From: a virus
Virus record (IMG/VR): IMGVR_UViG_3300028831_000022
Coordinates: 1-46,450 of that record
Direction: 5' to 3' (one strand)
Length of the DNA: 46,450 bases
Below, one piece after another: positions 142-46,450 of this stretch. A program made the translations under genes and the position numbers. How positions within the stretch are numbered: the first letter of the stretch is position 1; the number at the start of each line of letters is the position of its first letter. The notes under the pieces were generated by a model that had not been told where the DNA came from, did not search any database, and saw only the letters and a program-made list of their open reading frames with translations.

Positions 142-833
142 CGTTCTGCCGCCAGCATCTGATCGACCAGAGCCGCAGTCTCGTGATCATCCAGTGCCCG
201 ACCAAGGATAGCCTGGCCTACCTTGGTCACCTGTTCCCTGATGCTGGCCGGGTCACTGGTCACCACCTGATAGACACTGCCCTGACCGGTGCTACCAGAC
301 TTCACCTTCTGCTGGCCCAGTCCTGCATTGATCGACTCGTTGATGATCTCATCAATGGTCTTGATCACTCGCTCACTACCATCGGCATTCAACTGGGTAT
401 AACCCTGAGCGGTGGTGAGGACATTGATGGTGGCAGCGATATCATCCTGAGTGAGGATCTTCCCATTGGGTGGAGCTGCACCCTTGGAATAGGCTCTGTC
501 AGGATAGAAGCCTGCGGCATAGAGCCGCTGTGTGTAGGCTGCCAGCTTGTCCGGTGGCAGGTTGTGAAGCTGAGACAGTGTGTCCTTCAACGTCATGGTG
601 GTAGTAGGAATGGCAGGCTGCTTGATCAGGCCACCGCTGGTCTGGACATCACGTTCCTGCTGGCCCTTGTTTGTACCACCGAATGCCTGGCCCTGGCCTG
701 TCTGTAGACCATAGGCCCAGTTGACCAGATCATAACGTGACGAGGTTGGTTCCTCTTGAAGATAGATTGCTCGTGTGTCTACGCCTGTTCCGCCGCTGGT
801 TCCACCCATCCATTCAGTGCCGGTGTTCGCCAT
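1..833 (-). CDS. N-terminal 277 codons of a 300-aa virion-module protein that crosses the window junction; function unknown
   Basis: ATG at 833..831 overlaps the TGA of the giant ORF (ATGA). I scanned plus-strand triplets at 3,6,...,831 and found no tta/cta/tca, so the minus frame is open to base 1. It is absent from the ORF track because it has no stop inside the linear window. Confidence 0.8.
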   Translation of the reverse strand, partial: MANTGTEWMGGTSGGTGVDTRAIYLQEEPTSSRYDLVNWAYGLQTGQGQAFGGTNKGQQERDVQTSGGLIKQPAIPTTTMTLKDTLSQLHNLPPDKLAAYTQRLYAAGFYPDRAYSKGAAPPNGKILTQDDIAATINVLTTAQGYTQLNADGSERVIKTIDEIINESINAGLGQQKVKSGSTGQGSVYQVVTSDPASIREQVTKVGQAILGRALDDHETAALVDQMLAAERSPQEAAIHAGQQADLGGDVRLATARVDTEARLKAAVQSQNPNEAEA

Positions 834-3800
834 CAGTCAATCCCCAATTCAGGACGAATGATCCGGTTGTAGAATGCCTTGACCTGTGGGTTCTTGTCTA
901 CGTAACCCCTCACCCACAATGCGAACTGATCGGTCATACGCTCTTTGACCTGACGTTCTGCATTGGTATTCCGCTTGTACTGAGACTTGTTATCCAGATA
1001 GCTCTTGTAGTTAGTAACCAGAGTTCTCAGTTGGTCCTTGTGCAGAGCGTCCGGGGCATGAGGATCATCGAGAGCCTCTTCCATCTGGTCAAGGACCTGC
1101 TGCCTCCGCTGCTGAGCATCGGGGTCATTCAGAAGCCTACCGAAGACCTTGTGTTCGTCAAGGTACTCCTTCTTCCAAACCTGATACTGCTCTGTATACT
1201 GAGCCCGTAGCTGAGGATTGCCCTTGGCTGCTGCCATCCTCAGTTCGTAGTCATCCTTGTTGTTGAAATAGGTATCGGCTGCTGAGGCAAAGAAGTAGTC
1301 ATCGTACCACTCCTTGACAGACTTCCTCTTTCTCAGCTCCATACCGATTTCATCGTTGTAGGTCTGGTAGCTGAAGCCCGTATCATCGTCAGACTGTGGC
1401 AGAAGCCAAGGTCCTGCCATGCTGTACTTCTCAAAATACTCCTTGTTCTTATCCAGGAGAAGTCCTGCTTCTTCACTGGATGAGAGTGGAGCCTTGCTCG
1501 GTACGTCAGTCTTGACGATGGTGTAAGCCCTAGCGTCCGGGTGCTGAGCCATGAACTCCATGAAGGCTTCACCCATCGGGAGCCTGTTGTCATGGAGTAG
1601 TTTGTTGAACTCAGGCGTGAACTCGTCAATAGGCGCAGTGCTGGGTGCAGCCGGAGAGAAGAAACCGACTGCTCCCCTGAGGAACATCTGCATACGGGTG
1701 AAGTTCTCCAGCCGATGCCGGTAGTCTTTCTGCTCGTATTCGTCTGCATCCTCAGTCAACCCATACTTGTTGGCCCTGTCCCGAATCTCCTTGATCTTGG
1801 CCGCATCCTTCACCGGGTCAAGACCCTTGGCTTCATCCATGATTTCCTCAGTCTTCACCTGAAGCATCTGTGAAGTCTGGATCATGGACGAGGCGTACTC
1901 GCTGTCAGAGTCCACATCCTTAGCCAGGGCCTCATACATCTTGCCTGCCCAACTGGGCATGATGCTCTTGAGTATGAGGTCCACAGCGTTGTCATCGGTG
2001 ACACCACGCTCACCGACAATCGCCCTCTTGGCTGCATTCAGTTCAGGGAAGATACGGGTGACTGCCTCCAGAGGCAGGCCCATCATGGGGCTGACGCTGG
2101 GACCGATACGGTCCAGCGTGTCCAGACCGGGGATGACGTACTTCAGTTGCCCGGTCATAGGGCTGACGGTGGGGAAGGACACTTTGAACCGGCCACCACT
2201 GATCTTCTCCAGACCATTGGTCACAGCCTTGGTCATAATCCCTGTCATCGGGATATTGAAGACATCCTCACCGAACTGGTTCTGAGTCACCACTCCCGAA
2301 TTGCGTAGTGCGTCCATCGCAAGCTGTGCCTTACGGATAGCCGTGGGATCACGATAGACGTTGTTGATCGTCCTCTTGATGAAGTTCTCCTGAGCGAACC
2401 AGAAGGGAATGAGGTTCCGGCCATGCTGCTGGAATTGACTCCGTACCCTGTGGTCGTCGATCCAGGGAATGGTGTCCTCAATGGCACCCTTCTCTGCCTT
2501 GAGATGGGCCATCCGGTAGACCTCTGAGTTCCTGTCCAGTGCGTCCCTCAGTTGGGTCCACTCGTCGGCATCAAGGTCGGCATTCTCGAATGCCTTGGGG
2601 ATCTGAGGCGGGTAGCCGTTGTCACGGATACTGGTCCTCAGTTCATCATTGAGACTGAGATAGCTGTCCTGAATATCACGGAAGCTGTAGCCCTCAACGC
2701 CCAACTTCTGGACGTACTTGTCCTGCCACAGCTTCTCCACTTCAGGAAGGAGGTCAGAGTTCTGGTGCTCATAGAATGCGGTGAAGGCTTCGGCGAACTT
2801 CTTCTGATCCTCCACATCAATCAGTGAGCGAAGAGAAGGAGGAATAGGGTCCCTGGCAATCATGGCTGCCACCGGATCAACCGAGTTCCTAACCTCCAAG
2901 GGCAGGGACTTCCAGTCGGAGGCAAGCTGGTAATGACGGACACCTAATCTCTCGGAGAAGTTCTTGATAGTGTCGTGCGTACCTTCAGCCCCAAGCAGAC
3001 GCATCATCACGTCTGTCTCAGTCTTGAGCCTTTGGGCATAATAGTGCAGGTACATCTGGTTACGGATCATGGCGTTGCCGCCCTCACCGATGGCATCAAA
3101 GCCTCTGGTCACAAGGTCCTTGAACCAGTTCGTCCGGCTGGGCTCCAGAATGGATGCACCAATAGATGAGTCTGCGAGATAGGGTGCATGGTCGAACACA
3201 TCATTGACGTTGATGCGGTTCTCCAGCAGCTTGTGCTGAAGCTCTCGCAGAGCGTGCGGGTTCTTGGACTCGAAGACCTGTGAGTAACGACGGGCAGCCA
3301 CATAAGCCCAGTCGTCAATAGCCTCGTGACGAGCAGCCCCTACGGCAGGAACACCGTCAATCATCTGGAAGTTGTCATCGGCCAGTACCTTGTACTTCTC
3401 CCGCCAGGACTTCGGTATCCAGACCTGATTGGCAGCATTGGCCTGCGCCAGAGGGTCAAGGCCACCAGACACGTTGGCCTTGGCAAGACGCTGACCTTCC
3501 TGAAACACGTCTTCCGGCACATCGACATAGCCGATACTGACCGGCTGAGTCTTGTATTTGGCCTTGAGTCCATTGTGAATGTCTGCTGCATGAGCATAGT
3601 CCTGAGTGAACCAAGCCATCTCTTCAGGAGTCAGTGCCTCACCTTCAGGCAGGTCCTCAAGCAGATTAAGGTTCGGCTCGTGATTAGGACTGAGCCCATA
3701 GATTTCACCTGACTGGAACGGGATATAGCCATTCTCGGTGTCGATGACCGTGTTAGTCCTCGCCAGTTGGGGAGTGGGATTCTCCAAGGCTCTGGCCGTA

Positions 3801-6800
3801 CCGACAGGCTGAGTGTGGCCCAGGTCTTCGAATGCAGTAACCGGGTCCTTGTCCATGACCACGGTGTAGACCCGACGGGTACCCTTGACAGGTGCTGTGG
3901 CTACCGGCCTGTCATCCAAGGTTCTACCACTACGATAGGATTTCCGTACTGCATCAGACATATCGGCTGAGTTGAGCCTACGTCTGGTCAGCTTCCAGTA
4001 GGCATCATTGCTACTGCCCGGACCCCAGAGTGTGGCAAGGACATCTTCATATTCTTTTCTCGCTTCATCCTCTACGTGTTGCCTGATACGTGGAAGGTCA
4101 GACTCCACATCGAAGGCAGCGTTCGGATCAAGAATATGAGGACGATAGATTTTCTCTATCTCGCCATCTCTGGTGAAAATTGCTACACGTTGCCTTGTAT
4201 CTAGGTTCTCAATAGTATTGCGAAGCTGCCGTGCATCATCAAGCTCCATACCAGCACCAGTCAGATCGTCAAGGACCGACTGAATACTGGCGTGGGAGTC
4301 ATGCCTGAGCCAGCGCTCGAAGTTGGGCATCACCTCATCAGGTACCAGTTCCCTCATCTTCTTGAGGTCGCTGACATAATCCAGTCCCTGACCACGCTCA
4401 CTGATCAGACCAGCACCCCTGAACAGATCAGTGATCTGGTTGCCCTCTTCAAGTGTGAGTTGCCTACGTCCAGCGTCGATCATGCCTGCATAGACACGAT
4501 CGGTCTGCATTCTCCGCATCTCACGAAGGACAGTATGGGGGTAGAACCCTGAGAGAGCAGGACCCTTGATATGGGTAGTGAACTCTCCATGCTGGACAGG
4601 GACATAGGTGATCTCAGTGCTACCAGGGACCCGCTGTCCAATCACCTCTGTCTTGAGTCGTTCACCGATGGGAGTAGCCACCTCACCCAGGTTGGTGCCT
4701 AGCTGAGCCACTGCTCCATGTACGCCACCACCCTGATAGGCAAGGCTTCTGACTGCTGCAAGGTATTCCTCTGGTGCCATACGCTCAGCCCATTTACGGG
4801 TGAACGTACTGACTGATCCAGCCATGTTGTGAGCAAAGACTTCCAGTGGATCACTGACAGAAGTAAGAGGAATATGGGAGAGAAGAGAATCAGCGATCCA
4901 GCCAACCGGGCGCATCGGAAGGATATAGCCTTCCCTCGTGGCAGTAATAGCAGCCTGTGACTTGATCCATGCGCTGGGACCTTCTCTCAGCATGAAGCCA
5001 AGGAACTCTTCACCATAAGCCCTGGGGATGAAGCCTGCCTTGAGTAGTACAGCAGGCTTCCAATACTTCGACATGAAGCCGTTGATCATGCCTTCGTTGG
5101 TACCGTCCAGCCACTTACGGTACTTGGTTGTCTCAGCCGTGACCTTGAGCATCTCCTTGAAGTCAGGGATACCCCAGTATTCAGCCAGGTCTGCTTCACC
5201 AATACCGACCGGGCGATTGCCCAGACGGTCAAGCCCTTCACCGGCATAGCTCTGGGTACGACCAAGGATCTTCTGAAGCAGGCTCTTGCCTTCCTCAGTC
5301 TGTAATGCTCCCGAATAGTGGAACATGGACTGGACGCCTGCCTCATAGATGCCCCGTCTAGCAGTGACATCTGTGGTCTTCAGCCACTCGTTGAGGTAGT
5401 CATCTCTGAGATGACCAGGCAGGGCATATTCCAGTACAGCCCTGAACTGGGTCAGGCTGTGAGAGTCATCCGGCCCCATATAGTCGTACTTGGGAACCAG
5501 GGTATACATGCTGTGGATGGCATCACCCACAGCACCCTTCAGACTGATAGCTGCTCGCTGTCTGACATTGAAGAGTTCCGCCAGTTGACTAGGTTCCAGC
5601 GCATCGAAGCCATAGTCCTCAAGCCTGAACTGCGATACCCAATCCTTGATGCCGAGAGTCAGACCACTCCTGAATTCCTCACCTCTGGTCAGACTAGGAA
5701 GCACGGTACCGGGGAAGTGAGGTGCAGCGAACTTGCCCTCGTTGAGAGCCTTGGCCCCGGAGGTACTACGGAAGTAGTCGAAGATGTGTTCCCGATTGAG
5801 GTCTTCCAGAGACATGCCCCTCTTGGCAAAATACTGGGCCATGTCATGAAGGCCACCACCACGAAGCTGAGGTAGCCGGTCTAGTAGCTCACCCACACGG
5901 CCGGTATTCAGACCTTCAGCAATGGCATCGGCTGCCCGCTGGAACCGGGGCAGAGTCGAGAGATAGTTGACCCGCTGGGTCATCTCGGCAGCGTCGAGTC
6001 CTTCAGCCGCCGCCGCTACCGTCTTGGCTTCCAGACCATAACGGGCCAGGCGAGCTGACTGAGCCATCTCACCACCAACGATGGTGGGGTCAGTAAGGAC
6101 TCTGAACGTGCCGTCGATGCCACCCGACACGATGTTGAACGGAGTGGTCCCGTCCTTGAACGGGGTGAAGACCTTGGCAAAGTCCCGGCCTGGCGAAACC
6201 TTGTTGTTCCTTAGATCCTTGACTGCATCCTGAATGTCATCCTGATTCTGATACTGCGAATACTTGGATAGCTGCTCTTCAAACAGTGGGGTATCAGGAG
6301 TCAGTTGCAGGTTGTCAGTCAGGTAGTCACTGATGGTCTTGCCCTTGGCAAGCTCACTGACGAACTCGAATTTGTCAGCATCTCCACCCATGACCCGACG
6401 AACACGGTCCTTGGACTTCTCAGTGAAGTTGTTCTCACCATCATTAGTTCTCTTCCACAGGTCTTTGAAGTCACGATAGACAGCCAGTGGAGTAGCCCGA
6501 CGGTCCTGAATCTCAGCCTCATTGAGGCTGCCACCCATGCCGAAGACACCCTCTTCTTCACCACCCAACCGACCTGCACGATAGAGGTGGGTACCGATAC
6601 CACCAACATAGTCAAGACCTTGCAGTAACTGCTTGACCCCAACGACGTGAGTGACATCATGGACGAAGTCACCAGCCATCTTCTTGACAATGCCTAGCTC
6701 GGTGATATCAGGTTCCATAGCTTCGGGAGGGACATAGCCAGCCTTGCGAATGAGGCGCTGCTGTCCCTCATCGAATGCCTTGAATGCCTGCTGCTGCTTC

Positions 6801-7078
6801 CAGGGGTCCTGGATCCCCTTGAGGTGCTCAATGTATGCCTTGACCAAAATATCGCCACCAGCCGCCGTGGCATGACGAACAAGTTCATTGTCGTCAAAAG
6901 GACTACTGGCTAACTGGGTAGCGAACTTGACACCATCACCCTGACCGAAGATGGGGGCTGCATCCTGCACTAGCTTGATACGTCGGGCCAGGTTCTGGTT
7001 TGCCACATCACCGGGGCCGGTACTCTGGAGTCGTTGTTCCTGAGTCTGACCACCGGAGAAGAAGCTCACAATCCCCAC
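833..7078 (-). CDS. Giant 2081-aa virion-module protein (possibly internal/ejection or polyvalent minor head protein); function unknown
   Basis: One uninterrupted 6.2-kb ORF downstream of the portal. The start is GTG at 7078, or more likely GTG at 7069 (GTGA overlap with the upstream stop, GGAGG 10 nt upstream). I recognised no catalytic motif. Confidence 0.9.
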   Translation of the reverse strand: MGIVSFFSGGQTQEQRLQSTGPGDVANQNLARRIKLVQDAAPIFGQGDGVKFATQLASSPFDDNELVRHATAAGGDILVKAYIEHLKGIQDPWKQQQAFKAFDEGQQRLIRKAGYVPPEAMEPDITELGIVKKMAGDFVHDVTHVVGVKQLLQGLDYVGGIGTHLYRAGRLGGEEEGVFGMGGSLNEAEIQDRRATPLAVYRDFKDLWKRTNDGENNFTEKSKDRVRRVMGGDADKFEFVSELAKGKTISDYLTDNLQLTPDTPLFEEQLSKYSQYQNQDDIQDAVKDLRNNKVSPGRDFAKVFTPFKDGTTPFNIVSGGIDGTFRVLTDPTIVGGEMAQSARLARYGLEAKTVAAAAEGLDAAEMTQRVNYLSTLPRFQRAADAIAEGLNTGRVGELLDRLPQLRGGGLHDMAQYFAKRGMSLEDLNREHIFDYFRSTSGAKALNEGKFAAPHFPGTVLPSLTRGEEFRSGLTLGIKDWVSQFRLEDYGFDALEPSQLAELFNVRQRAAISLKGAVGDAIHSMYTLVPKYDYMGPDDSHSLTQFRAVLEYALPGHLRDDYLNEWLKTTDVTARRGIYEAGVQSMFHYSGALQTEEGKSLLQKILGRTQSYAGEGLDRLGNRPVGIGEADLAEYWGIPDFKEMLKVTAETTKYRKWLDGTNEGMINGFMSKYWKPAVLLKAGFIPRAYGEEFLGFMLREGPSAWIKSQAAITATREGYILPMRPVGWIADSLLSHIPLTSVSDPLEVFAHNMAGSVSTFTRKWAERMAPEEYLAAVRSLAYQGGGVHGAVAQLGTNLGEVATPIGERLKTEVIGQRVPGSTEITYVPVQHGEFTTHIKGPALSGFYPHTVLREMRRMQTDRVYAGMIDAGRRQLTLEEGNQITDLFRGAGLISERGQGLDYVSDLKKMRELVPDEVMPNFERWLRHDSHASIQSVLDDLTGAGMELDDARQLRNTIENLDTRQRVAIFTRDGEIEKIYRPHILDPNAAFDVESDLPRIRQHVEDEARKEYEDVLATLWGPGSSNDAYWKLTRRRLNSADMSDAVRKSYRSGRTLDDRPVATAPVKGTRRVYTVVMDKDPVTAFEDLGHTQPVGTARALENPTPQLARTNTVIDTENGYIPFQSGEIYGLSPNHEPNLNLLEDLPEGEALTPEEMAWFTQDYAHAADIHNGLKAKYKTQPVSIGYVDVPEDVFQEGQRLAKANVSGGLDPLAQANAANQVWIPKSWREKYKVLADDNFQMIDGVPAVGAARHEAIDDWAYVAARRYSQVFESKNPHALRELQHKLLENRINVNDVFDHAPYLADSSIGASILEPSRTNWFKDLVTRGFDAIGEGGNAMIRNQMYLHYYAQRLKTETDVMMRLLGAEGTHDTIKNFSERLGVRHYQLASDWKSLPLEVRNSVDPVAAMIARDPIPPSLRSLIDVEDQKKFAEAFTAFYEHQNSDLLPEVEKLWQDKYVQKLGVEGYSFRDIQDSYLSLNDELRTSIRDNGYPPQIPKAFENADLDADEWTQLRDALDRNSEVYRMAHLKAEKGAIEDTIPWIDDHRVRSQFQQHGRNLIPFWFAQENFIKRTINNVYRDPTAIRKAQLAMDALRNSGVVTQNQFGEDVFNIPMTGIMTKAVTNGLEKISGGRFKVSFPTVSPMTGQLKYVIPGLDTLDRIGPSVSPMMGLPLEAVTRIFPELNAAKRAIVGERGVTDDNAVDLILKSIMPSWAGKMYEALAKDVDSDSEYASSMIQTSQMLQVKTEEIMDEAKGLDPVKDAAKIKEIRDRANKYGLTEDADEYEQKDYRHRLENFTRMQMFLRGAVGFFSPAAPSTAPIDEFTPEFNKLLHDNRLPMGEAFMEFMAQHPDARAYTIVKTDVPSKAPLSSSEEAGLLLDKNKEYFEKYSMAGPWLLPQSDDDTGFSYQTYNDEIGMELRKRKSVKEWYDDYFFASAADTYFNNKDDYELRMAAAKGNPQLRAQYTEQYQVWKKEYLDEHKVFGRLLNDPDAQQRRQQVLDQMEEALDDPHAPDALHKDQLRTLVTNYKSYLDNKSQYKRNTNAERQVKERMTDQFALWVRGYVDKNPQVKAFYNRIIRPELGID

Positions 7079-13072: not shown

Positions 13073-13878
13073 CAAGCGAGTTACGCTTAGTGCGTACCCA
13101 GCGCCGACAGGAGCGGTGTGGATGCCCGCTTGTAGCTTTTCGGCGTACCCAAACTGGGCTTGCATGGGACAGCTAGGGTAATCAGGCTAATAAACTCCCT
13201 CTTCATACAAAATATTTGTCATATATGGGGGTGGCCTTACACACTCTGTCCCCATACTCCCGTCAAGGTACATGGGTGGGTTGCCCTAAAGGCTACTACC
13301 ACACCTATGTGATAAGCATAACCGAAGATTGATGATAGTTAGAGCCTCACTTAGGTGCCAGAAACCTCACACCTTCTCTTTTTCCTCACCTACTTGAGGT
13401 ACTCTCCACGTACCAACCTTACGTGAAGTGCTGATACCAGCAGACTGCTAGGGATGCTCACTACGTTCGCATACTCCTTCTAATGCGGGGTCCCCTACCC
13501 CGCATACCTACTCCGCTGAGTAGGCAAGCAGAGGCCCGCACTGCGGCCGGGGAATGAACAAAACCAAGGATCAAAGATCCTTGGCCCTCCGGGCGCCCAC
13601 TTCGTGGACGTTTTGTCCTATGACCCGTCCTACGTGCTTCACCTTCGTCGTGTCCCCGGCGCTATTCCGGCCGATGAAGCTGGCCGGGCGCCTAGATAGG
13701 TATATATGCCCCCTGATCGAAGCATGGGCACAAAGCCCAGCCCTTCGGGGACAAATACGAACACTTCGTGTCCGATTTGTCAGGCTTTGCACACCATGCT
13801 CTAAGGGGGCACATACATACTGGGTGGTAGACAGGATGTGTGAACTACAAAACCTAAGCTCAACAAGGAGCGTGCATC
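13073..13878. other. ~800-bp non-coding region with repeats, hairpins and an AT-rich tract (candidate origin, regulatory region or ncRNA region)
   Basis: No credible ORF. Repeats: cacttcgtgNNcgNtttgtc at 13598-13618 and 13762-13782; gcgtaccca at 13092 and 13143. Hairpins at 13483-13505 and 13564-13584. AT-rich tract at 13204-13227. Confidence 0.7.
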
Positions 13879-13977
13879 ATGGTTAAGTTGTTCTTCGCCT
13901 CGACAGTGATCGTGTTCATCCCCATCCTGCACCAGGCCATCGAGGCTGTGCAGCACATCAGCAAGGTAGTCAACTAG
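13879..13977 (+). CDS. 32-aa hydrophobic peptide (MVKLFFASTVIVFIPILHQAIEAVQHISKVVN)
   Basis: Hand-translated. It is preceded by aagctcaacAAGGAGcgtgcatc, an upstream context repeated before two other genes. Confidence 0.5.
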   Translation: MVKLFFASTVIVFIPILHQAIEAVQHISKVVN

Positions 13978-14048
13978 CACGACCTGTGGTAAGCTAGAAG
14001 GTAGTTAGAGAAGAAGCGAGAAAGCTTCGTTACGAAAGGTGAACGCCA

Positions 14049-26723: not shown

Positions 26724-27208
26724 TACTTGGTCCCTCCCTCGGCTGGAGTCAGGAACTTATTACATGCATCCTTCAACTGACTAGGGATCGGAATAGGTTG
26801 CTCGCCGGTCGGTGCAATATAGGTGTAGCCATGTTGCTTAGCCTCTAGCCGGTGAGCTAGTTCATTTGCATCTCTATGTTGGATGAGCTGAAGGGCAATG
26901 CATTGTGCGGTGTCTTCAATAGCTTCCTGCACCTGACCTAACCTGTCTATAATATCAGACCGGAAGGAGAGTGAGGACTTCCTATTCTCTTCGTAACATC
27001 TCCCTTTAGGAGTGGTGCAATCAGAGATGACCTGACCAAACTGTCTGGTACGAGCAGAGTTCCAGCCTGAGAAGGCCATACTCAGGGTAGCTGTCAGGCA
27101 AGTAAGCAGGATGAGTAGGAACTCGAACCTCCGCAGTTGCTGGAGTGAGGACACTGCCTCTCTGGCAGCCTTGACTTCCTCGGCTGCACCGTTACTGAAG
27201 GGTTCCAC
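26723..27208 (-). CDS. 161-aa single-TM protein in the lysis cassette
   Basis: TM segment FEFLLILLTCLTATLSMAF; four Cys in the ectodomain. Confidence 0.6.
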   Translation of the reverse strand: MEPFSNGAAEEVKAAREAVSSLQQLRRFEFLLILLTCLTATLSMAFSGWNSARTRQFGQVISDCTTPKGRCYEENRKSSLSFRSDIIDRLGQVQEAIEDTAQCIALQLIQHRDANELAHRLEAKQHGYTYIAPTGEQPIPIPSQLKDACNKFLTPAEGGTK

Positions 27209-27605
27209 CCTTGCCCCTTATCGTGGAGATGAGATCCTTGAGTAGGGCGATCTGCGTATCAGCCATCTCGATCTGCTTGTTGTGCTCATCCCTACGAGCA
27301 CCCTCTTCTCTGGCAACTACCTCGGCCAGGTGCTCTACTGCTGCTCGCTGAGTCAGGTCAGAGCGGTAGGTGTCAGCCTTCTGTTCAGAAGCGATACGTA
27401 GCTGACGTTCCTTCTGTAGCTCAGCTTCAAGCTGTACCTGTAGTTCCTTCTGGTTGTCAATGATCCGCTTGTCCAACTCTCTCAGCTTCTGCTCAGAGGC
27501 TGAACGGAATACGGTATAAGCAATACCCAGAGTACCGGCTAATCCGAAGACAACCGAGAGTGCAAAGAGTATTGTGTCTGCACCCTGGAGTACCGCCAGT
27601 ATCAT
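27192..27605 (-). CDS. 137-aa protein with an N-terminal TM plus coiled coil (lysis accessory or spanin-like)
   Basis: TM ILFALSVVFGLAGTLGIAYTVF followed by a charged heptad-like region. Confidence 0.6.
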   Translation of the reverse strand: MILAVLQGADTILFALSVVFGLAGTLGIAYTVFRSASEQKLRELDKRIIDNQKELQVQLEAELQKERQLRIASEQKADTYRSDLTQRAAVEHLAEVVAREEGARRDEHNKQIEMADTQIALLKDLISTIRGKGGTLQ

Positions 27606-27754
27606 GGAATGAACGATGCGGCAAAGGAAGCCAGGCCCAGCATCTCGAACCTAAGCTGCTCTGCTGGAGCCATGTCCTTGGCAAAGAGGGCGACACCAAG
27701 GAAGCAGATGATAGCGAGAATAAGGAAGATGATGCGGACTATTCTATTGTCCAT
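27602..27754 (-). CDS. 50-aa hydrophobic holin-like peptide (MDNRIVRIIFLILAIICFLGVALFAKDMAPAEQLRFEMLGLASFAASFIP)
   Basis: Hand-translated and not in the ORF track. It sits directly downstream of the endolysin, and its stop overlaps the next ATG (ATGA). Confidence 0.55.
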   Translation of the reverse strand: MDNRIVRIIFLILAIICFLGVALFAKDMAPAEQLRFEMLGLASFAASFIP

Positions 27755-27762
27755 AGCTCCTA

Positions 27763-28623
27763 CTAAGGTAGCCCGTATAGTTCACCAGATGTAGCTTGGA
27801 TCAGGTACTTGTAGTTAGTCCAGCCAGTGGGATTAGGCCATATCTTGGTGGCCTCTTCAGGCCAGAGCAACTTGGCCGCAGTCCTGTTCCTGAAGAAGTC
27901 CTGCCCGTTGGCCCCGCCGTAGTACACAGCACCCTCGAAAGCAAAGATAGCTCCGTCGTCCTGTAGAATATAGAACCCGTTGGTGTACTTGTCCCTACGT
28001 GCATCCACCATACGGACGGTAAGCGGCGGGTCAATCATAGGGCGCACTCCCACTTCCAGCTTGAGAAGGTAATCAATGTCGATGTCACCTGGGTCCCAGT
28101 GACTGTTGACTGGAACATGCTGGTGACCACACCATCCATTGAACTTCTTCCAGTCAGTGACATTCAGTCTGATAGGGCTAGTGTCTCTGGCGAGGACGAT
28201 GCCTTCCTTATCTGACTTAAAGTCTAGGGCGGTTCGGGTGATTCCGGTGTTAGCTTCAATCCAACGCATGAGCCTGCCAATGCCGTCAAGGTATTCATGC
28301 TGGAGAGTTCCCGCTGAAGCTGCCCTAGCAACAATTTCAATCTGAATGCATCGGGCTCGATTAGTCTCGACTGTTCCGGCTGGGTGAGCAAGTGCTCTAG
28401 CTGCCTTATTAAGAGGGATATGTTGCCAAACTTTGAAAGTTCCTCCTTCAAAGCTGACAGTGAAGTGGGGAGCCACGTTAGCTCTTGCATAGACGGACCT
28501 TGCCCCGGCATAGCTATCACCCTCAGTTGTGTGAAGGACGCCTCTCCAAGCGAAGCCGTCGATGAATCCACCAGCATCCTTGAATTCATCCTTGGTAGCT
28601 AGAGGATACCACATCTCGCTCAT
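27763..28623 (-). CDS. Endolysin: N-acetylmuramoyl-L-alanine amidase (Amidase_2/PGRP type) with a C-terminal wall-binding region
   Basis: VLHTTEG, HFTV, NRARCIQIEIV, GHQHVPVNSHWDPG. The ATG at 28623 has GAGGAAG 9 nt upstream. The track's GTG at 28713 would add a Lys-rich extension that overlaps the upstream gene. Confidence 0.85.
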   Translation of the reverse strand: MSEMWYPLATKDEFKDAGGFIDGFAWRGVLHTTEGDSYAGARSVYARANVAPHFTVSFEGGTFKVWQHIPLNKAARALAHPAGTVETNRARCIQIEIVARAASAGTLQHEYLDGIGRLMRWIEANTGITRTALDFKSDKEGIVLARDTSPIRLNVTDWKKFNGWCGHQHVPVNSHWDPGDIDIDYLLKLEVGVRPMIDPPLTVRMVDARRDKYTNGFYILQDDGAIFAFEGAVYYGGANGQDFFRNRTAAKLLWPEEATKIWPNPTGWTNYKYLIQATSGELYGLP

Positions 28624-28657
28624 GTATGGGTACTTCCTCTTGTAGTAGTTCTTCTTC

Positions 28658-28894
28658 TTATTCAGGCTTTGGCTTTGCTTGCGGTTTCTTACTGGATTCG
28701 TACTTGCCTGCACCAGCTAGCTCCACAATGAGAAGGGCCACACTGTAGTCAAGGGCAGACTGTAAGCCTGGCCCAGGTGGTGCCTTGCTATGGGGACAGG
28801 TGAGAGAGCCGTCATTGTGGTACTTAAGTCGTTCAATCTCATGGCAGTACAGCGGATGATGAGGACCAGAGTGCTCAGACTGCTGAGCAGACAC
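28658..28894 (-). CDS. 78-aa Cys/His-containing protein with a weakly hydrophobic segment and a Lys/Pro tail
   Basis: GTG start. Its codon usage (T/C-ending codons) matches the rest of the genome far better than the overlapping ORF 28717..28929. Confidence 0.5.
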   Translation of the reverse strand: MSAQQSEHSGPHHPLYCHEIERLKYHNDGSLTCPHSKAPPGPGLQSALDYSVALLIVELAGAGKYESSKKPQAKPKPE

Positions 28895-28932
28895 ATTATC
28901 TGCAATGGCCCGAGCCGTGGATATCCCATTGG

Positions 28933-29103
28933 TTACTGACCGCCCCGTTGCCTGAACTTGACCAGAACTTCCTGGTCTTCCAGTAGCCGATCGACCTCGT
29001 CTAGGAATGAGTTCACCTCATCTAAGACAGAAGACTCCTCAGTTTCCCGGGAGTCCTCATGAGTCTCTTCCTTGGTGGTAGTACGAGTCGAGGTCCTTTG
29101 CAT
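28933..29103 (-). CDS. pup: Prokaryotic ubiquitin-like protein (Pup) homologue, 56 aa
   Basis: Hand-translated: MQRTSTRTTTKEETHEDSRETEESSVLDEVNSFLDEVDRLLEDQEVLVKFRQRGGQ*. The C-terminal LDEVDRLLEDQEVLVKFRQRGGQ parallels M. tuberculosis Pup LDEIDDVLEENAEDFVRAYVQKGGQ. The N-terminal half looks disordered and acidic. GGGGA lies 5 nt upstream of the ATG. Confidence 0.75.
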   Translation of the reverse strand: MQRTSTRTTTKEETHEDSRETEESSVLDEVNSFLDEVDRLLEDQEVLVKFRQRGGQ

Positions 29104-29126
29104 GTATTCCCCAGTCTGTTGGCTGA

Positions 29127-29279
29127 CTAGGCTATCCAGTCAGGAATCTTTGGATTCTTCATCCCCTTCGACTTCCATACCTTGAATCCATACTTGGCAG
29201 ATGACCCGGTGTTGGGGTTACCGGGCTTCTTCCGGTCACCCTGGTTCTTCATGCTTGATCCCCGGTTACTCTTTGCCAT
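29127..29279 (-). CDS. 50-aa Lys/Gly/Asn-rich basic peptide
   Basis: Hand-translated: MAKSNRGSSMKNQGDRKKPGNPNTGSSAKYGFKVWKSKGMKNPKIPDWIA. ATGA coupling to the upstream gene. Confidence 0.5.
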   Translation of the reverse strand: MAKSNRGSSMKNQGDRKKPGNPNTGSSAKYGFKVWKSKGMKNPKIPDWIA

Positions 29280-29479
29280 CACTTTCCCTTCTTCAAACTT
29301 GGGTACTTCGAGTATACCTTCCGCCTGACTGTGGCCTTCTCGCTATTTGTCCCATGTTGGGCTACCCGAGCCAGGGCATTCCGGGCATGGCTGATGTCGT
29401 GGATGGGATAACGACGGTTGGGTAGGGCGAAGGAGGATGAGGATAAGGAGTTCCTCTTCCTGGCTGTGAGCTTGGCCAT
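29279..29479 (-). CDS. 66-aa basic protein with an FALP..RRYPIHD..HARNALARV motif (DUF6582-like, tentative)
   Basis: ORF track; GAGGTGG lies 3 nt upstream. The family was recalled from memory. Confidence 0.6.
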   Translation of the reverse strand: MAKLTARKRNSLSSSSFALPNRRYPIHDISHARNALARVAQHGTNSEKATVRRKVYSKYPSLKKGK

Positions 29480-29491
29480 ATACCACCTCTG

Positions 29492-30154
29492 CTAAACACC
29501 AATATCCTCAACCAGGATATATGACACCACGTTTGATGCACCCACCATCTGTAAGGTTCCTGAACCAGAGTCCAATTGCAAGGACAATTTATAGGTATGG
29601 GAGCCAGCACTAGGCGTGAGCACCACTGACCCAGTAAGAGTACGGAACCCTGAGCCAGCAGTCCCCAATGTATCTCGGACAACCTGAAGAACAGTAGCTC
29701 CCTCTTTGATGTTCACTTGTGGCCCGTCACCATTAGCAGTGCTGGAGCAGCCAATGTTGAATGAGATGCGGATACGACGGGATGCAGCCACAGTGACAGT
29801 TACGCTGAGTCCAGTCAGATCTGTCTCTGATGTAATCCCAGTCTGGTTAGTTGTGCGTTGGGCATAACCAAGAGTACCCAGTGTCGTAGCTCCACCGGGT
29901 GGTGTTGCCCATGTAGTATCATAGTCTGTTGCGGAGACTTTCTTAAGGTAGGTATCGGTAGCACCACCAGCCGGGACACCGACACCAGCAGGGCCGGTAG
30001 GTCCGATGGAACCAGCCGGTCCCGTAGGTCCAGCAGGACCGGTGGGGCCAGCCGGTCCCTCAGGTCCCTCAGGGCCAGGAGGACCCTCGGTCACAGGATC
30101 ATTCAGATGAATATGCCTATGACGAAGAGGATCAAGGTAGTCAGTAGTTGGCAT
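29492..30154 (-). CDS. Collagen-like fibre protein (220 aa)
   Basis: A continuous 45-residue G-X-Y run (15 triplets, [40 protein letters not shown]) followed by a beta-rich C-terminal domain. Confidence 0.8.
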   Translation of the reverse strand: MPTTDYLDPLRHRHIHLNDPVTEGPPGPEGPEGPAGPTGPAGPTGPAGSIGPTGPAGVGVPAGGATDTYLKKVSATDYDTTWATPPGGATTLGTLGYAQRTTNQTGITSETDLTGLSVTVTVAASRRIRISFNIGCSSTANGDGPQVNIKEGATVLQVVRDTLGTAGSGFRTLTGSVVLTPSAGSHTYKLSLQLDSGSGTLQMVGASNVVSYILVEDIGV

Positions 30155-31260
30155 CAGGTCTTCACCAAGAAGTTGATGACCCGGTACTGCGGCATGTTGG
30201 CATCGGTACCACTGACACCGGCACCCTGGTTCGTAGCAGTAGCTGCTTGGTTGGTAGCTGTCTGATTCTGGTTAGTTGCCGTACCGTTAACGACAGAGAC
30301 ACCGGTAGCTGCATAGTCAATGTTTGTGTAAGTGATGTAGACACCAGAGCCAGCGTTAGCAATACGCTCGTTCTGCACTGGGCCAGAACGGAAGGCAATA
30401 TTGAAACCGAAGTCACCACCACCAATGCTGTGATGGTGGGTAGGATCACTGATACCGTGGCCGTGAGGATCTTGAGTGTGGCCGTGTCCGTTTTGAGTGT
30501 GGTTGTGAGGGTCCTGAGTGTGACCGTGACTGACCACTACCGCATTGTTGGAACCACCACCGGCACCGAGTGTTGATGCCGTGCCTGAAGCAGCCTTCCC
30601 TACCGGGAACGTGCGCTGGAAGTTCGGCAGGTTGAAGGTGGTGGTCCCATTCCCCGAGCCGTGGGTGGTACCAATAGCGGCGAACAGGTCGGCATAGGTA
30701 GCTCTGCTGACCTCCGACCCGTCACACATCAGCCAGCCGGTGGGAGCCGTGGCCCTAGCTGTCATCTTCAGGTCGCCGGGTTCCCAGCGCTGGTCCTCAG
30801 ACAACAAGGCATAGGTGATGGACTCTTCCACGATGTTCTCAGTGGTGATCGTGGAAGCTTCGATCATGTCTGCTGTGTGCAGAATATCGCTGTGCCTGGA
30901 TGTATTCAGGTACTGGCTGTGGTCATCCCTGGTATCGTCGTTGACATGCTGGCTGGCTTCAGTGGCCGAAGCTGCATCCCAGACATGCTCGACCACAGAC
31001 TGGGCTGCGTGAGCCTGAGCGGTGGTCCCGTCATAGCCTCTGGTCAGACCGGAGAACACATCGCTGGCCCGACTGGCTACGAGGATCTTCTCTTCCAGTT
31101 CCGTGCCAGGGTCGATGACCACTACGAAGGGAGCAGTCGCTCCACTGGGGTAACCTCCACCACCACCGGTAGCTACCGTGAAGTTGGTGGTGGTACCAGA
31201 GGCAAGCGAGCTTGACAGCCTCGTCTGCTTGGCGTTACCGGCATATTCCTTAAGTGCCAT
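30154..31260 (-). CDS. Tail fibre protein with a phage tail-collar domain and an HxH-rich repeat
   Basis: GWLMCDGSEVSRATYADLFAAIGTTHGSGNGTTTFNLPNFQRTFPVG, then HGHTQDPHNHTQNGHGHTQDPHGHGISDPTHHH, ending NMPQYRVINFLVKT. Confidence 0.85.
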   Translation of the reverse strand: MALKEYAGNAKQTRLSSSLASGTTTNFTVATGGGGGYPSGATAPFVVVIDPGTELEEKILVASRASDVFSGLTRGYDGTTAQAHAAQSVVEHVWDAASATEASQHVNDDTRDDHSQYLNTSRHSDILHTADMIEASTITTENIVEESITYALLSEDQRWEPGDLKMTARATAPTGWLMCDGSEVSRATYADLFAAIGTTHGSGNGTTTFNLPNFQRTFPVGKAASGTASTLGAGGGSNNAVVVSHGHTQDPHNHTQNGHGHTQDPHGHGISDPTHHHSIGGGDFGFNIAFRSGPVQNERIANAGSGVYITYTNIDYAATGVSVVNGTATNQNQTATNQAATATNQGAGVSGTDANMPQYRVINFLVKT

Positions 31261-35379: not shown

Positions 35380-36621
35380 TCAGTCGCTCACTCGTCGAAT
35401 CCACGCCCGGTATGAGTAGGCGACAGCCGTAGAACCCCAGACGGTGATCGAACTGCCGCCATAACCGTTATAGGCAGCGAAGTAGACCTTGTCACCTACA
35501 GCAAGGTCTAGCTCCATCGTGGCATCCATATTGTGATTGGCACCAGCCGCCGCCTTCGATACCCGCATCTTCTCCGTACCGGGAGCAGCACCTATCGTTG
35601 AGCTAGCACCAATAGAAAGGTACTTGTCCCCAAGTGTGCTCGCCCACTCGATCTGCACATGAATGATATATCGACCAGCCGTATTGATTGTGAACCTATC
35701 ACCAGAAGCAGTCGTGAAACAGTTGTCAGTATCTCTAACCTCAGTATCGAAGCTCAGATATGTCCATGCTGTAGCACTCAGATTATGGTCTGCTGCTCGC
35801 CTTGCTTCGGCTCCAAGAAAGGCAACAGAAGCAGCGGCAGGTGCAGCATCAGTGTCGATCCATAGATCATTGGTAGCAGGAGAAGAAGGGGCAGTATCCT
35901 GCTGAGCAATAGTGGAGCCGCCACCTGATACCGGTTGCCACGAGCGGTCATCCCTCAGATACTTAGACCCCGTTGGTGTACCAGTAGCAAAGTTGCTGTT
36001 GGTGACAAGCTCCGCTGTATCGGTGATGCCGTGGACAGCGGTACTGTCGGCTGCATGGGCAGCATCAGCAGCAGCCAGATCAGTATCAGCCGTAGCCAGG
36101 CCAGCCAGGTCAGTTAGCAGACCAGTAACATCAGACTCAGCATGGTCATGAGGACCAGCCTCACTAGCGACAACCGCTGTTGTCCAGCCAGTAGGTGAGG
36201 ATGACGAGACAACCAGAGCTTCACCATCAGCAGCACCGGTAGGATCAAAGGAAGCTGGACTCTCCGGGCCTGAGGCAATGAGAATGCTACCCTTGTCATT
36301 GAGTACCGACCGGGCGATGACCTCACTACCCGATGCTCTGCTCTCAATGTCAGCCGGGTCTGCCTCGATGGAGACATTCTGGATCGTGACTCCATTGATG
36401 AGCAGATCGTAGTAACCAGGCTCAGCATAGAATGAGCAGTTGCCCCTGGCATCAGTAGCTGTTGGGTTGGGGATGGAGTTGTCCTTGCCCCTGTCCTCAT
36501 AGAGCGTAGCCAGTGTGGTTGTGCCAGCTTGATAGACAGTGACAGTGGTATTGCGAAGAGGCTGTCCGTAAGGATCAACGAATGCTTCTGGGGAATAACG
36601 GCCAGCATAGGTAAAAGCCAT
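35380..36621 (-). CDS. 413-aa tail fibre-like protein
   Basis: HDHAESDVTGLLTDLAGL and AVHGITDTAEL fibre-repeat-like motifs. Confidence 0.65.
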   Translation of the reverse strand: MAFTYAGRYSPEAFVDPYGQPLRNTTVTVYQAGTTTLATLYEDRGKDNSIPNPTATDARGNCSFYAEPGYYDLLINGVTIQNVSIEADPADIESRASGSEVIARSVLNDKGSILIASGPESPASFDPTGAADGEALVVSSSSPTGWTTAVVASEAGPHDHAESDVTGLLTDLAGLATADTDLAAADAAHAADSTAVHGITDTAELVTNSNFATGTPTGSKYLRDDRSWQPVSGGGSTIAQQDTAPSSPATNDLWIDTDAAPAAASVAFLGAEARRAADHNLSATAWTYLSFDTEVRDTDNCFTTASGDRFTINTAGRYIIHVQIEWASTLGDKYLSIGASSTIGAAPGTEKMRVSKAAAGANHNMDATMELDLAVGDKVYFAAYNGYGGSSITVWGSTAVAYSYRAWIRRVSD

Positions 36622-37937
36622 CAGGCCACCTTCAACCAGAATCCTGCGACACCACCAATAGGAATAACCATAGAAGGTGTGGTACCACCACGAGCACAGG
36701 TCAGTTGCACAGTACCGGCTGTGCCCGCAGTCTCTATCACACCCCGGATCTCTGCGCCTGAGTTGGCAATCTGAGCTTGAGCAGCAAAGGTACCGAAGGC
36801 TGTGATGATCCCGGTGAACTCCACCGATGTGGAACTGTCCTGCTCCAGGGTGATTGCCACTGTGGCACCGGCTGGTCCTGTCACGCCATAAGCTGTAGTA
36901 GGGCTGGTACCTGTTGAGGTCGTGACGTTGACATACATCACGAAGTAATACTTGGAGTTGGCTGCCACATTGAAGCTGGCATCGGTGATGGCTGTCTGAG
37001 CCGTGGCAGTCAGTGTCTGAGCGCCGGTCTTCCTGATCACCCCACCCGTAGCCATCGTGGCATGACCGGCAGTGACGTGGGCAGCCAGGTCGGCATCAGT
37101 GGCATAGCCGGTGTGCGGATCGCTGGCAGCGGCATGTGTATTGATAGCCGACGTGACTTCAGCATCCCTGGCTATGGCAGCAGGAATGTCGGCATCGACC
37201 AGGGCTGTAGCTATCTGCCGGTAGCGGCTGTCTCCCTCAGTCTGGGTGAGGTACGTAGGGTGAGGATCAGCCGCTGCCTCATGAGTAGCTATGGCTGAGG
37301 TGACTTCACTGTCCCTGGCAATGGTAGCCGGGATGTCAGCGTCAAGTATAGTATGGGTGTGACCGGTCTGAGCATACTGGGTATGAGGATTACCAGTGGT
37401 CAGGTTGGTCAGGGCAGCATGGTCCGTGGTACCGGGAGGACCGGTCGGTCCAGTAGGACCAGTGTTACCCGTATCACCCTTGACTCCTTGAGGACCCTGA
37501 GGACCAGTAAGCCCAGTATCACCCTTGACTCCCTGAGGACCAGTCAGTCCTTGTGGTCCCTGTGATCCGGTGTCTCCGGTATCACCCTTGGGTCCTTGTG
37601 GTCCCGTTGGCCCTGCTGGTCCCTGAGGACCAGCCGGTCCTGTGCTGCCTGGTGAGCCTGACGGACCAGCCGGTCCCGGATCGCCCTGCGGCCCTGGAGG
37701 ACCCTCCGGTCCTTCTGGCCCTTCTGGTCCCTCCGGTCCAGTGTCACCTTCCGGCCCGGTCAGACTCAGCCATTCGGCGCCGTTCCAGAGGAACACCTCT
37801 CCAGTGGCTGGCCTGATCCACTCGTCACCGGCCCGCTGCGGAGCCGGTTCCTGATTCTGGACGTAGGTGGTGATAGGGGTACCACCACTTGTCCCTCCAC
37901 CACTACCAGCCAGTGTGGCTCTGGAGATAGGACTCAT
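36621..37937 (-). CDS. Collagen-like tail fibre protein (438 aa)
   Basis: About 37 G-X-Y triplets, followed by a duplicated DADIPAxIARDxEVTSAIxTHxAAxDPH unit. Confidence 0.85.
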
Positions 37938-46240: not shown

Positions 46241-46450
46241 CAAGCCCCTCCACCTGAGATACCACCGTCAATCATCTGTCTCATGATATTGACGTAGTTC
46301 ATCTCTGAATAGGCTTCAGCCTCATTGGGGTTCTGGGACTGTACCGCTGCCTTCAGCCTGGCCTCGGTATCCACTCGGGCAGTAGCCAGCCGCACATCCC
46401 CACCAAGGTCGGCCTGCTGTCCCGCATGGATGGCTGCCTCCTGAGGACTA
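46240..46450 (-). CDS. C-terminal part of the same junction-spanning 300-aa protein (46310..46450 duplicates 1..141)
   Basis: The frame continues ...NEAEAY SEMNYVNIMRQMIDGGISGGGA to TGA at 46242..46240, which overlaps the ATG of the next gene (TGATG). Confidence 0.8.
   Translation of the reverse strand, partial: SPQEAAIHAGQQADLGGDVRLATARVDTEARLKAAVQSQNPNEAEAYSEMNYVNIMRQMIDGGISGGGA
46310..46450. repeat. Second copy of the 141-bp terminal overlap (same as 1..141)
   Basis: Base-for-base identity with 1..141 when read by eye. Confidence 0.95.

Follow-up and report, generated by a model that had tools for sequence, protein, structure and literature searches.

What use would a phage have for the gene of a prokaryotic ubiquitin-like protein (Pup) if its genome holds none of the enzymes that handle such a tag? 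The question is raised by a short minus-strand reading frame in IMG/VR virus record IMGVR_UViG_3300028831_000022, whose whole stretch of 46,450 nucleotides was analysed here and is called the window. Pupylation is known from Actinomycetota as a cellular pathway that serves in stress and protein turnover. A Pup that ends in GGQ must be deamidated by Dop before PafA can join it to lysines; its helix is bound by Mpa/ARC, which threads the protein from its N-terminus (PMC3511204, PMC8223512). In the classical locus dop lies upstream of pup, prcB/prcA or pafA downstream and arc/mpa near; the order arc-dop-pup-pafA is described as 'rigidly conserved', and some organisms possess two pup genes (PMC3511204). 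A first-pass annotation of the window had proposed that the frame encodes a Pup homologue dependent on the enzymes of the host, which might redirect pupylation, serve as a decoy or tag virion proteins.

A Pup-like frame in a complete phage genome

The first 141 nucleotides of the window recur exactly at 46310-46450. This repeat marks it as the complete genome of a phage, either terminally redundant or closed into a circle, with a length of about 46.3 kb. It carries genes for an SU10-type capsid protein, SSB, UDG and DUF932; no tRNA genes were found in it. When this complete genome was probed by tblastn with Dop, PafA and ARC no match was obtained, which upholds the first-pass statement that it has no PafA, Dop or Mpa candidate, and none of Dop, PafA and ARC was found in the related phage loci either.

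The frame of interest lies between fibre genes and the lysis cassette, with coordinates and translation exactly as first annotated (Table 1). It reads MQRTSTRTTTKEETHEDSRETEESSVLDEVNSFLDEVDRLLEDQEVLVKFRQRGGQ and is closed by TAA. Its neighbours on the fibre side are a Collar-domain fibre, a collagen-like fibre and two small ORFs; on the lysis side they are an Amidase_2 endolysin and three small membrane-type ORFs. No promoter-like or terminator-like sites were found between the Pup gene and the late fibre-lysis genes, and a CTGGGG motif 5' of its start codon is kept in three related phage loci (L001, L007 and L099).

Table 1. Coordinates of the Pup gene, its ribosome-binding signal and its neighbours in the window, and placement of Pup genes in other phages
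Feature	Genome or locus	Position	Strand	Remarks
Pup-family gene	window	28933..29103	(-)	56 aa, MQRTST...FRQRGGQ*; ATG start, TAA stop (translation)
Shine-Dalgarno-like GGGGA	window	29108..29112	(-)	7 nt 5' of the Pup ATG (sequence)
Partner reading frame	window	28658..28936	(-)	-1 relative to Pup; begins at the base before the Pup stop; about 78-92 aa
Amidase_2 endolysin	window	27763-28713		lysis side of the Pup gene
Collagen-like fibre	window	29492-30154	(-)	near the Pup gene
Collar-domain tail fibre	window	30154-31260		near the Pup gene
Pup	L003			between WhiB/HNH genes and terminase
Pup	L010			adjoins integrase
Pup	L014, L015, L016			replication modules
Pup, HUN42_00036	Dagobah (MT711977.1)			after endolysin; cultured Streptomyces phage

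From its N-terminus on, the encoded protein comprises an acidic half, the amphipathic helix FLDEVDRLLE, a linker of reduced length and the C-terminal segment VLVKFRQRGGQ. Residues 1-25 are, by sequence, polar, acidic and of low complexity, as the first-pass annotation had noted in likening this half to Pup, and are predicted to be disordered. Residues 26-50 follow the pattern LDEVNSFLDEVDRLLEDQEVLV and align with the helix by which Pup is bound to Mpa. In Pup a disordered N-terminal part is joined to a C-terminal half whose hydrophobic pattern favours a coiled coil (PMC3511204). Pup family proteins have about 55-70 aa and a terminal GGQ or GGE; the window protein has 56 aa and ends in ...RGGQ.

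Other parts of the genome also attract attention. A 2081-aa minus-strand ORF (833-7078) has no Pfam match at E<=0.001; its neighbours are a 613-aa ORF, likewise without a Pfam match, and a 611-aa ORF that matches HTH motifs only. The minus-strand fibre ORFs at 29492-30154, 35380-36621 and 36621-37937 include two fibre-like proteins with collagen triple-helix repeats, and one of the collagen-type ORFs has a weak C1q-like domain match. This suggests that the phage bears elaborate collagen-like tail fibres.

Homology to Pup

Taken singly, the window protein matches Pfam PF05639 at E 6.9e-5 from profile position 13 to the end (13-69 of 69) with 24.1 bits, under the gathering cutoff of 27, such that the Pfam check proposed in the first-pass annotation found the family and missed its threshold. 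Against TIGR03687, the NCBIfam model of the Pup C-terminus, it scores 10.9 bits for a cutoff of 41.45. A single-sequence search of the PDB returned only coiled-coil noise, weak matches to designed coiled coils included, and a search of PHROGs gave nothing significant for Pup.

The family to which the protein belongs is more informative. Among 1.84 billion representatives, searched exhaustively with phmmer, there were 21 homologues at E<=1e-3, three of them at <=1e-10, all of 55-81 aa and each aligned through to its own C-terminus; precomputed PF05639 matches are present on close homologues. In a 23-member alignment of the family (A1), every member matches PF05639, with a best E of 1.9e-9, and 18/23 match TIGR03687 weakly. 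The members share the pattern LLDE[IV]D-LLE-Q--L--[FY]RQR[GS]G[QE], in which no variation is seen at D35, E36, D38, L41, L47, Q52 or the Gly before last, and the terminal residue is always Q or E. Searched against the PDB, the A1 profile recovers solved Pup chains in 3m91_B (7.7e-9), 9cku_H (1.1e-8), 7px9_G (4.9e-8) and 7oxy_B, where Pup is held by Dop (5.8e-5), and more weakly the PafA-Pup fusion 4bjr_A (2.8e-3). Pup bound to Mpa is among these matches, all of which reach the C-terminal end.

When the window Pup is aligned with solved Pup from the C-terminus, the hydrophobic pattern of the second helix is kept (V-L-x-x-F vs F-V-x-x-Y), as is the Q-[RK]-G-G-[QE] end in the alignment of A1, and the linker between the two helices is two residues shorter than in M. 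tuberculosis Pup. The C-terminal alignment with M. tuberculosis Pup drawn in the first-pass annotation, GGQ included, is accordingly retained, with the qualification that the protein represents a divergent subtype, ending in [FY]RQ[RK][GSP]G[QE], and carries a deletion. Deposited phages were matched neither by positions 27000-31000 in megablast nor by the 56-aa protein in tblastn, nor by a second phage-type Pup probe, and alignments led by the window Pup and its downstream neighbour returned from IMG/VR either the canonical-type contigs L003 and L004 or nothing, tblastn confirmation being strict for queries of this length.

Since the single sequence falls below the curated cutoffs of both Pfam and TIGR03687, membership is argued from the family as a whole. 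By that family-level evidence (the PF05639 match, its presence in 23/23 members and the PDB Pup chains) we assign the ORF to the Pup protein family as a divergent member, and the homology first claimed for it stands.

Maintenance of the gene and of its C-terminus

The Pup gene occupies the same place in four syntenic phage loci, namely the window, L001, L007 (a 45.7-kb contig) and L099, which share about 70% nucleotide identity. Among the phage loci its pN/pS is 0.28-0.70 in frame vs about 1.0 in the other two frames. The ORF is a genuine gene under purifying selection.

The first-pass annotation had looked to the terminal GGQ/GGE of phage homologues, and conservation of this end proved strong. 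Window-type homologues end in G-[QE] (GGQ, GGE, SGQ, PGE), the first Gly being replaced by S or P in many members of the subtype, with a single exception; the 36 other viral Pups described below add to this without any. The exception, P0002 in locus L002 (848-1114), lacks the stop after GGQ, and 26 mostly hydrophobic residues precede the start of the next gene, the partner described below. The extension is given as assembled, from a single contig of a single sample, and belongs to a different phage lineage from the window; either this variant cannot be conjugated or the assembly is at fault.

A partner gene coupled to Pup

The earlier reading of the window overlooked a conserved gene that directly follows Pup, here called the partner (Table 1). 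Its frame is kept in L001, L002, L005, L007, L008, L009, L011, L012, L014 and L099, and pN/pS among the phage copies is 0.27-0.64. The product is rich in His and Cys, with the invariant residues H-H-P-x-x-C ... C-x-H ... L..EL, and belongs to a family of 666 proteins of about 84 aa, all of them 'hypothetical' or without a name; the named members come from Acidimicrobiia MAGs. No Pfam domain was found across the 666 homologues and no significant PDB match by sequence. An AF2 model of the partner has a core pLDDT of 85-93, and Foldseek found no structural neighbour for it, the best E being 2.4 in the PDB and 0.86 in BFVD.

The manner in which the two genes adjoin differs between cells and the window. 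In cellular loci a GTG or ATG of the partner overlaps the Pup stop (CA-GTG-A or CA-ATG-A); in the window this codon is GTA. Between positions 28892 and 28936 on the minus strand the window has no ATG, GTG or TTG before the GTG at 28892-28894, and L001 has none at all in that stretch. Candidate starts in the window are this GTG and an ATA at 28922-28924, homologous to a TTG in L099. Over the 14 codons from the Pup stop to the first GTG, the window and L001 differ by eight synonymous and no nonsynonymous changes, and purifying selection thus acts on the partner frame from the Pup stop onward. Translation of the partner may begin by near-cognate initiation or by termination-reinitiation. A -1 frameshift that fuses Pup and partner was considered and is unlikely, as the sequence offers no slippery heptamer and the codon that is ATA in the window is a TTG start in L099.

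How tightly the pair is held together became apparent from a metagenome scan led by the partner. Among 80 loci, 68 have a Pup-like gene directly upstream, three are cut by the contig end and nine lack such a gene, giving adjacency in 68/77 assessable cellular loci (88%). In cells, translation of the two genes is coupled, and on this ground the partner would probably bind Pup or direct its use. On phages, the partner lies beside Pup only in the window lineage and in that of L014/L002.

Several small ORFs at equivalent positions merit mention in their own right. Some of the partner loci without Pup have short upstream ORFs that resemble Pup remnants: in L022 (about 1690-1723) and L037 (about 710-744), ORFs of 9-11 aa (MPSTREVGQ* and MMPSIRQRLGR*) look like two Pup ends joined by an internal deletion. 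In L015 (9668-9850) and L016 (510-690) the ORF that overlaps the Pup stop starts with M-T-N-G-I, where the window partner has V-T-N-G-I, and continues as a different Cys-rich sequence undetected by the partner HMM. L010 has another small CxxC protein at the partner position.

Cellular relatives and the probable host

Searching with the A1 profile gathered 3,399 proteins, and several of the best-scoring carry the NCBI name 'ubiquitin-like protein Pup [Acidimicrobiia bacterium]'; P0052, P0096 and P0103 are examples of this type. Near cellular Pups of the window subtype, Dop, PafA, ARC and prcBA were absent from all of about 95 loci, which include 20-kb stretches of contigs of 82 kb to 320 kb. 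A control locus from Nitriliruptoraceae (L006) showed the expected ARC-Dop-Pup order. The flanking order of the classical pup locus (dop; prcB/prcA or pafA; arc/mpa) is absent around the window Pup as well as around the subtype loci, and the window gene is a member of the Pup family that is not part of a classical dop-pup-pafA locus.

Acidimicrobiales are reported to possess arc-dop-pup-pafA (Barandun et al. 2012, PMC3511204), and our literature search returned nothing else usable on pupylation in Acidimicrobiia. The Pup-partner pair may constitute a second, unlinked pup locus in these cells. In L008 (13722-18093) and L011 (15084-18862) the pair lies a few kb from genes for a HelY-type helicase and TatC. 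In M. tuberculosis, helY and tatC are the flanking genes of pafA-pafBC, where the classical Pup-proteasome locus ends, and their proximity in these two loci may be a remnant of the classical neighbourhood.

An actinobacterial host is indicated by two lines of evidence: the phage relatives of the endolysin are actinophages without exception (77 of Streptomyces, 32 of Brevibacterium), and the nearest cellular Pups and partners are those of Acidimicrobiia. The window has a GC content of 54% and its phage lineage 49-54%, vs 70-75% for the cellular loci, and the host is therefore probably a relative of lower GC. The capsid protein gave no clue to the host, its only matches being below 33% identity and to phages of unrelated hosts.

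Orphan Pup genes on other phages

Orphan Pup genes recur across many unrelated phage genomes. All 36 viral Pup loci in IMG/VR end exactly in GGQ (17) or GGE (19), and neither Dop nor PafA nor ARC occurs within 6 kb of any of them. Besides the window lineage, Pup is found in at least five other phage contexts, examples of which are listed in Table 1. GenBank notes the CDS of phage Dagobah as 'ubiquitin-like protein Pup', and the phage's own paper is silent on Pup. The first-pass view that Pup is not a standard phage annotation is qualified by this one deposited record; our literature search found no paper discussing a phage-encoded Pup.

A candidate for a phage with a full pupylation locus was rejected. 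The record MT835496.1, 'UNVERIFIED: Bacteriophage sp.' from human faeces, holds ARC, Dop, Pup and a PafA-like gene at 40636-46716 (L018); it is an unannotated 159-kb scaffold with cellular gene order and is probably bacterial rather than a phage with a complete pupylation system. As a separate observation, the L014 phage, which has the Pup-partner pair, encodes a protein with an Acb2/Tad1-type hairpin domain (13785-14021), from a family known for anti-defence sponges, along with WhiB and two dCMP-deaminase-like genes.

What the phage Pup may do

We favor, with a probability of roughly 55%, a reading in which the phage Pup would serve as a substrate of host enzymes, enlarging or re-routing the pool of conjugatable tag, with the partner acting alongside it. 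An ancestor of the phage lineage would have captured both genes of an Acidimicrobiia-type operon, and the lineage keeps both under purifying selection. Because the complete genome is without Dop, PafA and Mpa/ARC, the phage Pup would need those of the host: host Dop would deamidate its terminal Gln to Glu, and host PafA would then attach it to the lysines of its targets. Through its retained LLDE[IV]D-LLE helix and an N-terminus of roughly 25 presumably disordered residues, the phage Pup could be recognised and threaded by the ARC/Mpa ATPase of the host. In the course of infection the conjugatable tag pool would thereby be enlarged or re-routed. Conjugation by host enzymes, the targets and the role of the partner are each what we infer for the phage protein. 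The two-residue deletion and the S or P at the first Gly of many members speak against use of host enzymes, in so far as they make compatibility with PafA and Dop uncertain, and the subtype is never seen beside dop, pafA, arc or prcBA in cells, which may imply another route. The scores of the single sequence below both curated cutoffs, the gap in GC between the phage and the cellular loci and the residues past GGQ in P0002 weigh on the same side.

Of the alternatives, we regard as unlikely, while giving it first place among them, that the phage Pup, possibly held by the partner, is a decoy or inhibitor that binds Dop, PafA or the coiled coil of ARC/Mpa but is not productively conjugated, shutting down host pupylation or Pup-dependent degradation and, for example, sparing phage proteins. 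A protein that keeps the Mpa-binding helix and the C-terminal segment on a linker two residues shorter, with S or P at the first Gly in relatives and a C-terminal extension in one homologue, would suit such a role, as would a gene that no promoter-like or terminator-like site sets apart from the surrounding late fibre-lysis block. However, G-[QE] stands strictly last in all window-type members but one and in 36/36 other viral Pups, as a conjugated tag needs, and a mere binder would tolerate more variation at its C-terminus; cells, too, carry the subtype as a normal operon, a setting in which a self-inhibitor is less to be expected.

Less probable again is a two-protein module separate from PafA and Dop, which phages would have borrowed for a purpose outside classical pupylation. 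Pup might then act as an acidic disordered chaperone or antagonist of a small metal-binding protein, or as a tag for some other enzyme. The unlinked position of the pair with respect to dop, pafA, arc and prc in every cellular locus examined, the overlap of stop and start with 88% co-occurrence, a partner that matches no known fold or family and the poor score of the subtype against the NCBIfam equivalog model all fit this explanation. Yet both the C-terminal Q-[RK]-x-G-[QE] and the helix pattern are conserved in a form that fits the PafA/Dop groove, which is hard to explain if these enzymes play no part; most phage Pups occur without the partner and nine partner loci without Pup, so neither strictly needs the other, and the pairs of L008 and L011 lie within a few kb of tatC and helY.

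It is highly improbable that the operon is a passenger, taken from a host and without a role in infection. The fibre-lysis junction at which it sits is a typical position of accessory 'moron' genes, but purifying selection acts on it in four phage genomes that have diverged to about 70% nucleotide identity, and phages have gained orphan Pups independently in no fewer than five different contexts. That the frame arose by chance, or encodes an acidic coiled-coil peptide with a mere resemblance to Pup, is scarcely credible, for although the frame is short, of low complexity, under the Pfam gathering cutoff and weakly matched by designed coiled coils, this is refuted by frame-specific selection, end-to-end homologues, PF05639 matches in 23/23 members and recovery of solved Pup at 7.7e-9.

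Wider meaning and relation to known systems

The Pup family itself is known; new here are the widespread occurrence of Pup on phages, the divergent subtype and a coupled partner without a known fold. Orphan Pups that recur, always with a conjugation-competent end and never with the enzymes, point to viral manipulation of a ubiquitin-like system. It is possible, at well below even odds, that phages of Actinomycetota commonly carry an orphan Pup to hijack or jam the pupylation-proteasome system of the host, and that the Pup-partner pair marks a second, Acidimicrobiia-like Pup pathway, captured whole, in which the partner, as a small metal-binding protein, would control or direct the tag. If true, virus-encoded ubiquitin would thereby have a counterpart among prokaryotes. 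The cultured pair of Dagobah and Streptomyces coelicolor makes the idea of such viral manipulation directly testable; the window subtype offers a gauge of the sequence divergence that PafA, Dop and Mpa can accept, and the tightly coupled partner may add a new element to the Pup biology of Acidimicrobiia.

Compared with M. tuberculosis Pup (Rv2111c; PF05639; TIGR03687; 3m91, 4bjr, 7oxy), the window protein is alike in size (56 vs 64 aa), in its acidic and seemingly disordered N-terminus, in the LLDE[IV]D-[VL]LE amphipathic helix, in the hydrophobic spacing of the second helix and in the Q-[KR]-G-G-Q end. It differs in the linker, EDQE where M. tuberculosis has EENAED, and in FRQR where M. tuberculosis has YVQK. 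Its gene is moreover carried by a phage, unlinked to dop, prcBA and pafA, and is followed by the partner instead of prcB (PMC3511204). The Pups of Acidimicrobiia type come closer, with the motif LLDEID-[LV]LE[ED]Q--L--[FY]RQ[RK][GSP]G[QE] and the partner family directly downstream; however, they and their partners share only about 40% identity with the window proteins, their loci have 70-75% GC vs 54%, and their partners possess an additional conserved C and H (Q-x-C-[LI]-D-H) absent from the phage copy.

The other phage Pups, those of Dagobah and the 36 IMG/VR loci, resemble the window Pup in standing without Dop, PafA and ARC and in ending in GGQ or GGE, and the Dagobah gene adjoins an endolysin gene as in the window. 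Unlike it, nearly all are canonical, FV--[FY][VI]Q[KR]GG[QE], with neither the deletion nor the partner, and they lie in other genome modules (WhiB/HNH-terminase, replication, the side of the integrase). UBact is said to be a Pup homologue of several Gram-negative phyla, attributed to Lehmann et al. in 2017, that often ends in R-[TS]-G-[EQ] and is reportedly distinguished by this C-terminus and by linkage to proteasome and ligase homologues. That end resembles the RSGQ of many members of the window subtype, whereas the window protein itself ends in RGGQ and has its named relatives in Actinomycetota; no UBact model appeared among the Pfam/NCBIfam matches of the window Pup. Eukaryotic viruses encode ubiquitin, an example being the v-ubi of baculoviruses. 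Although the protein fold and enzymology there are unrelated and the hosts belong to another domain, the analogy, and it is an analogy only, lies in a virus that carries the tag and leans on the conjugation enzymes of its host.
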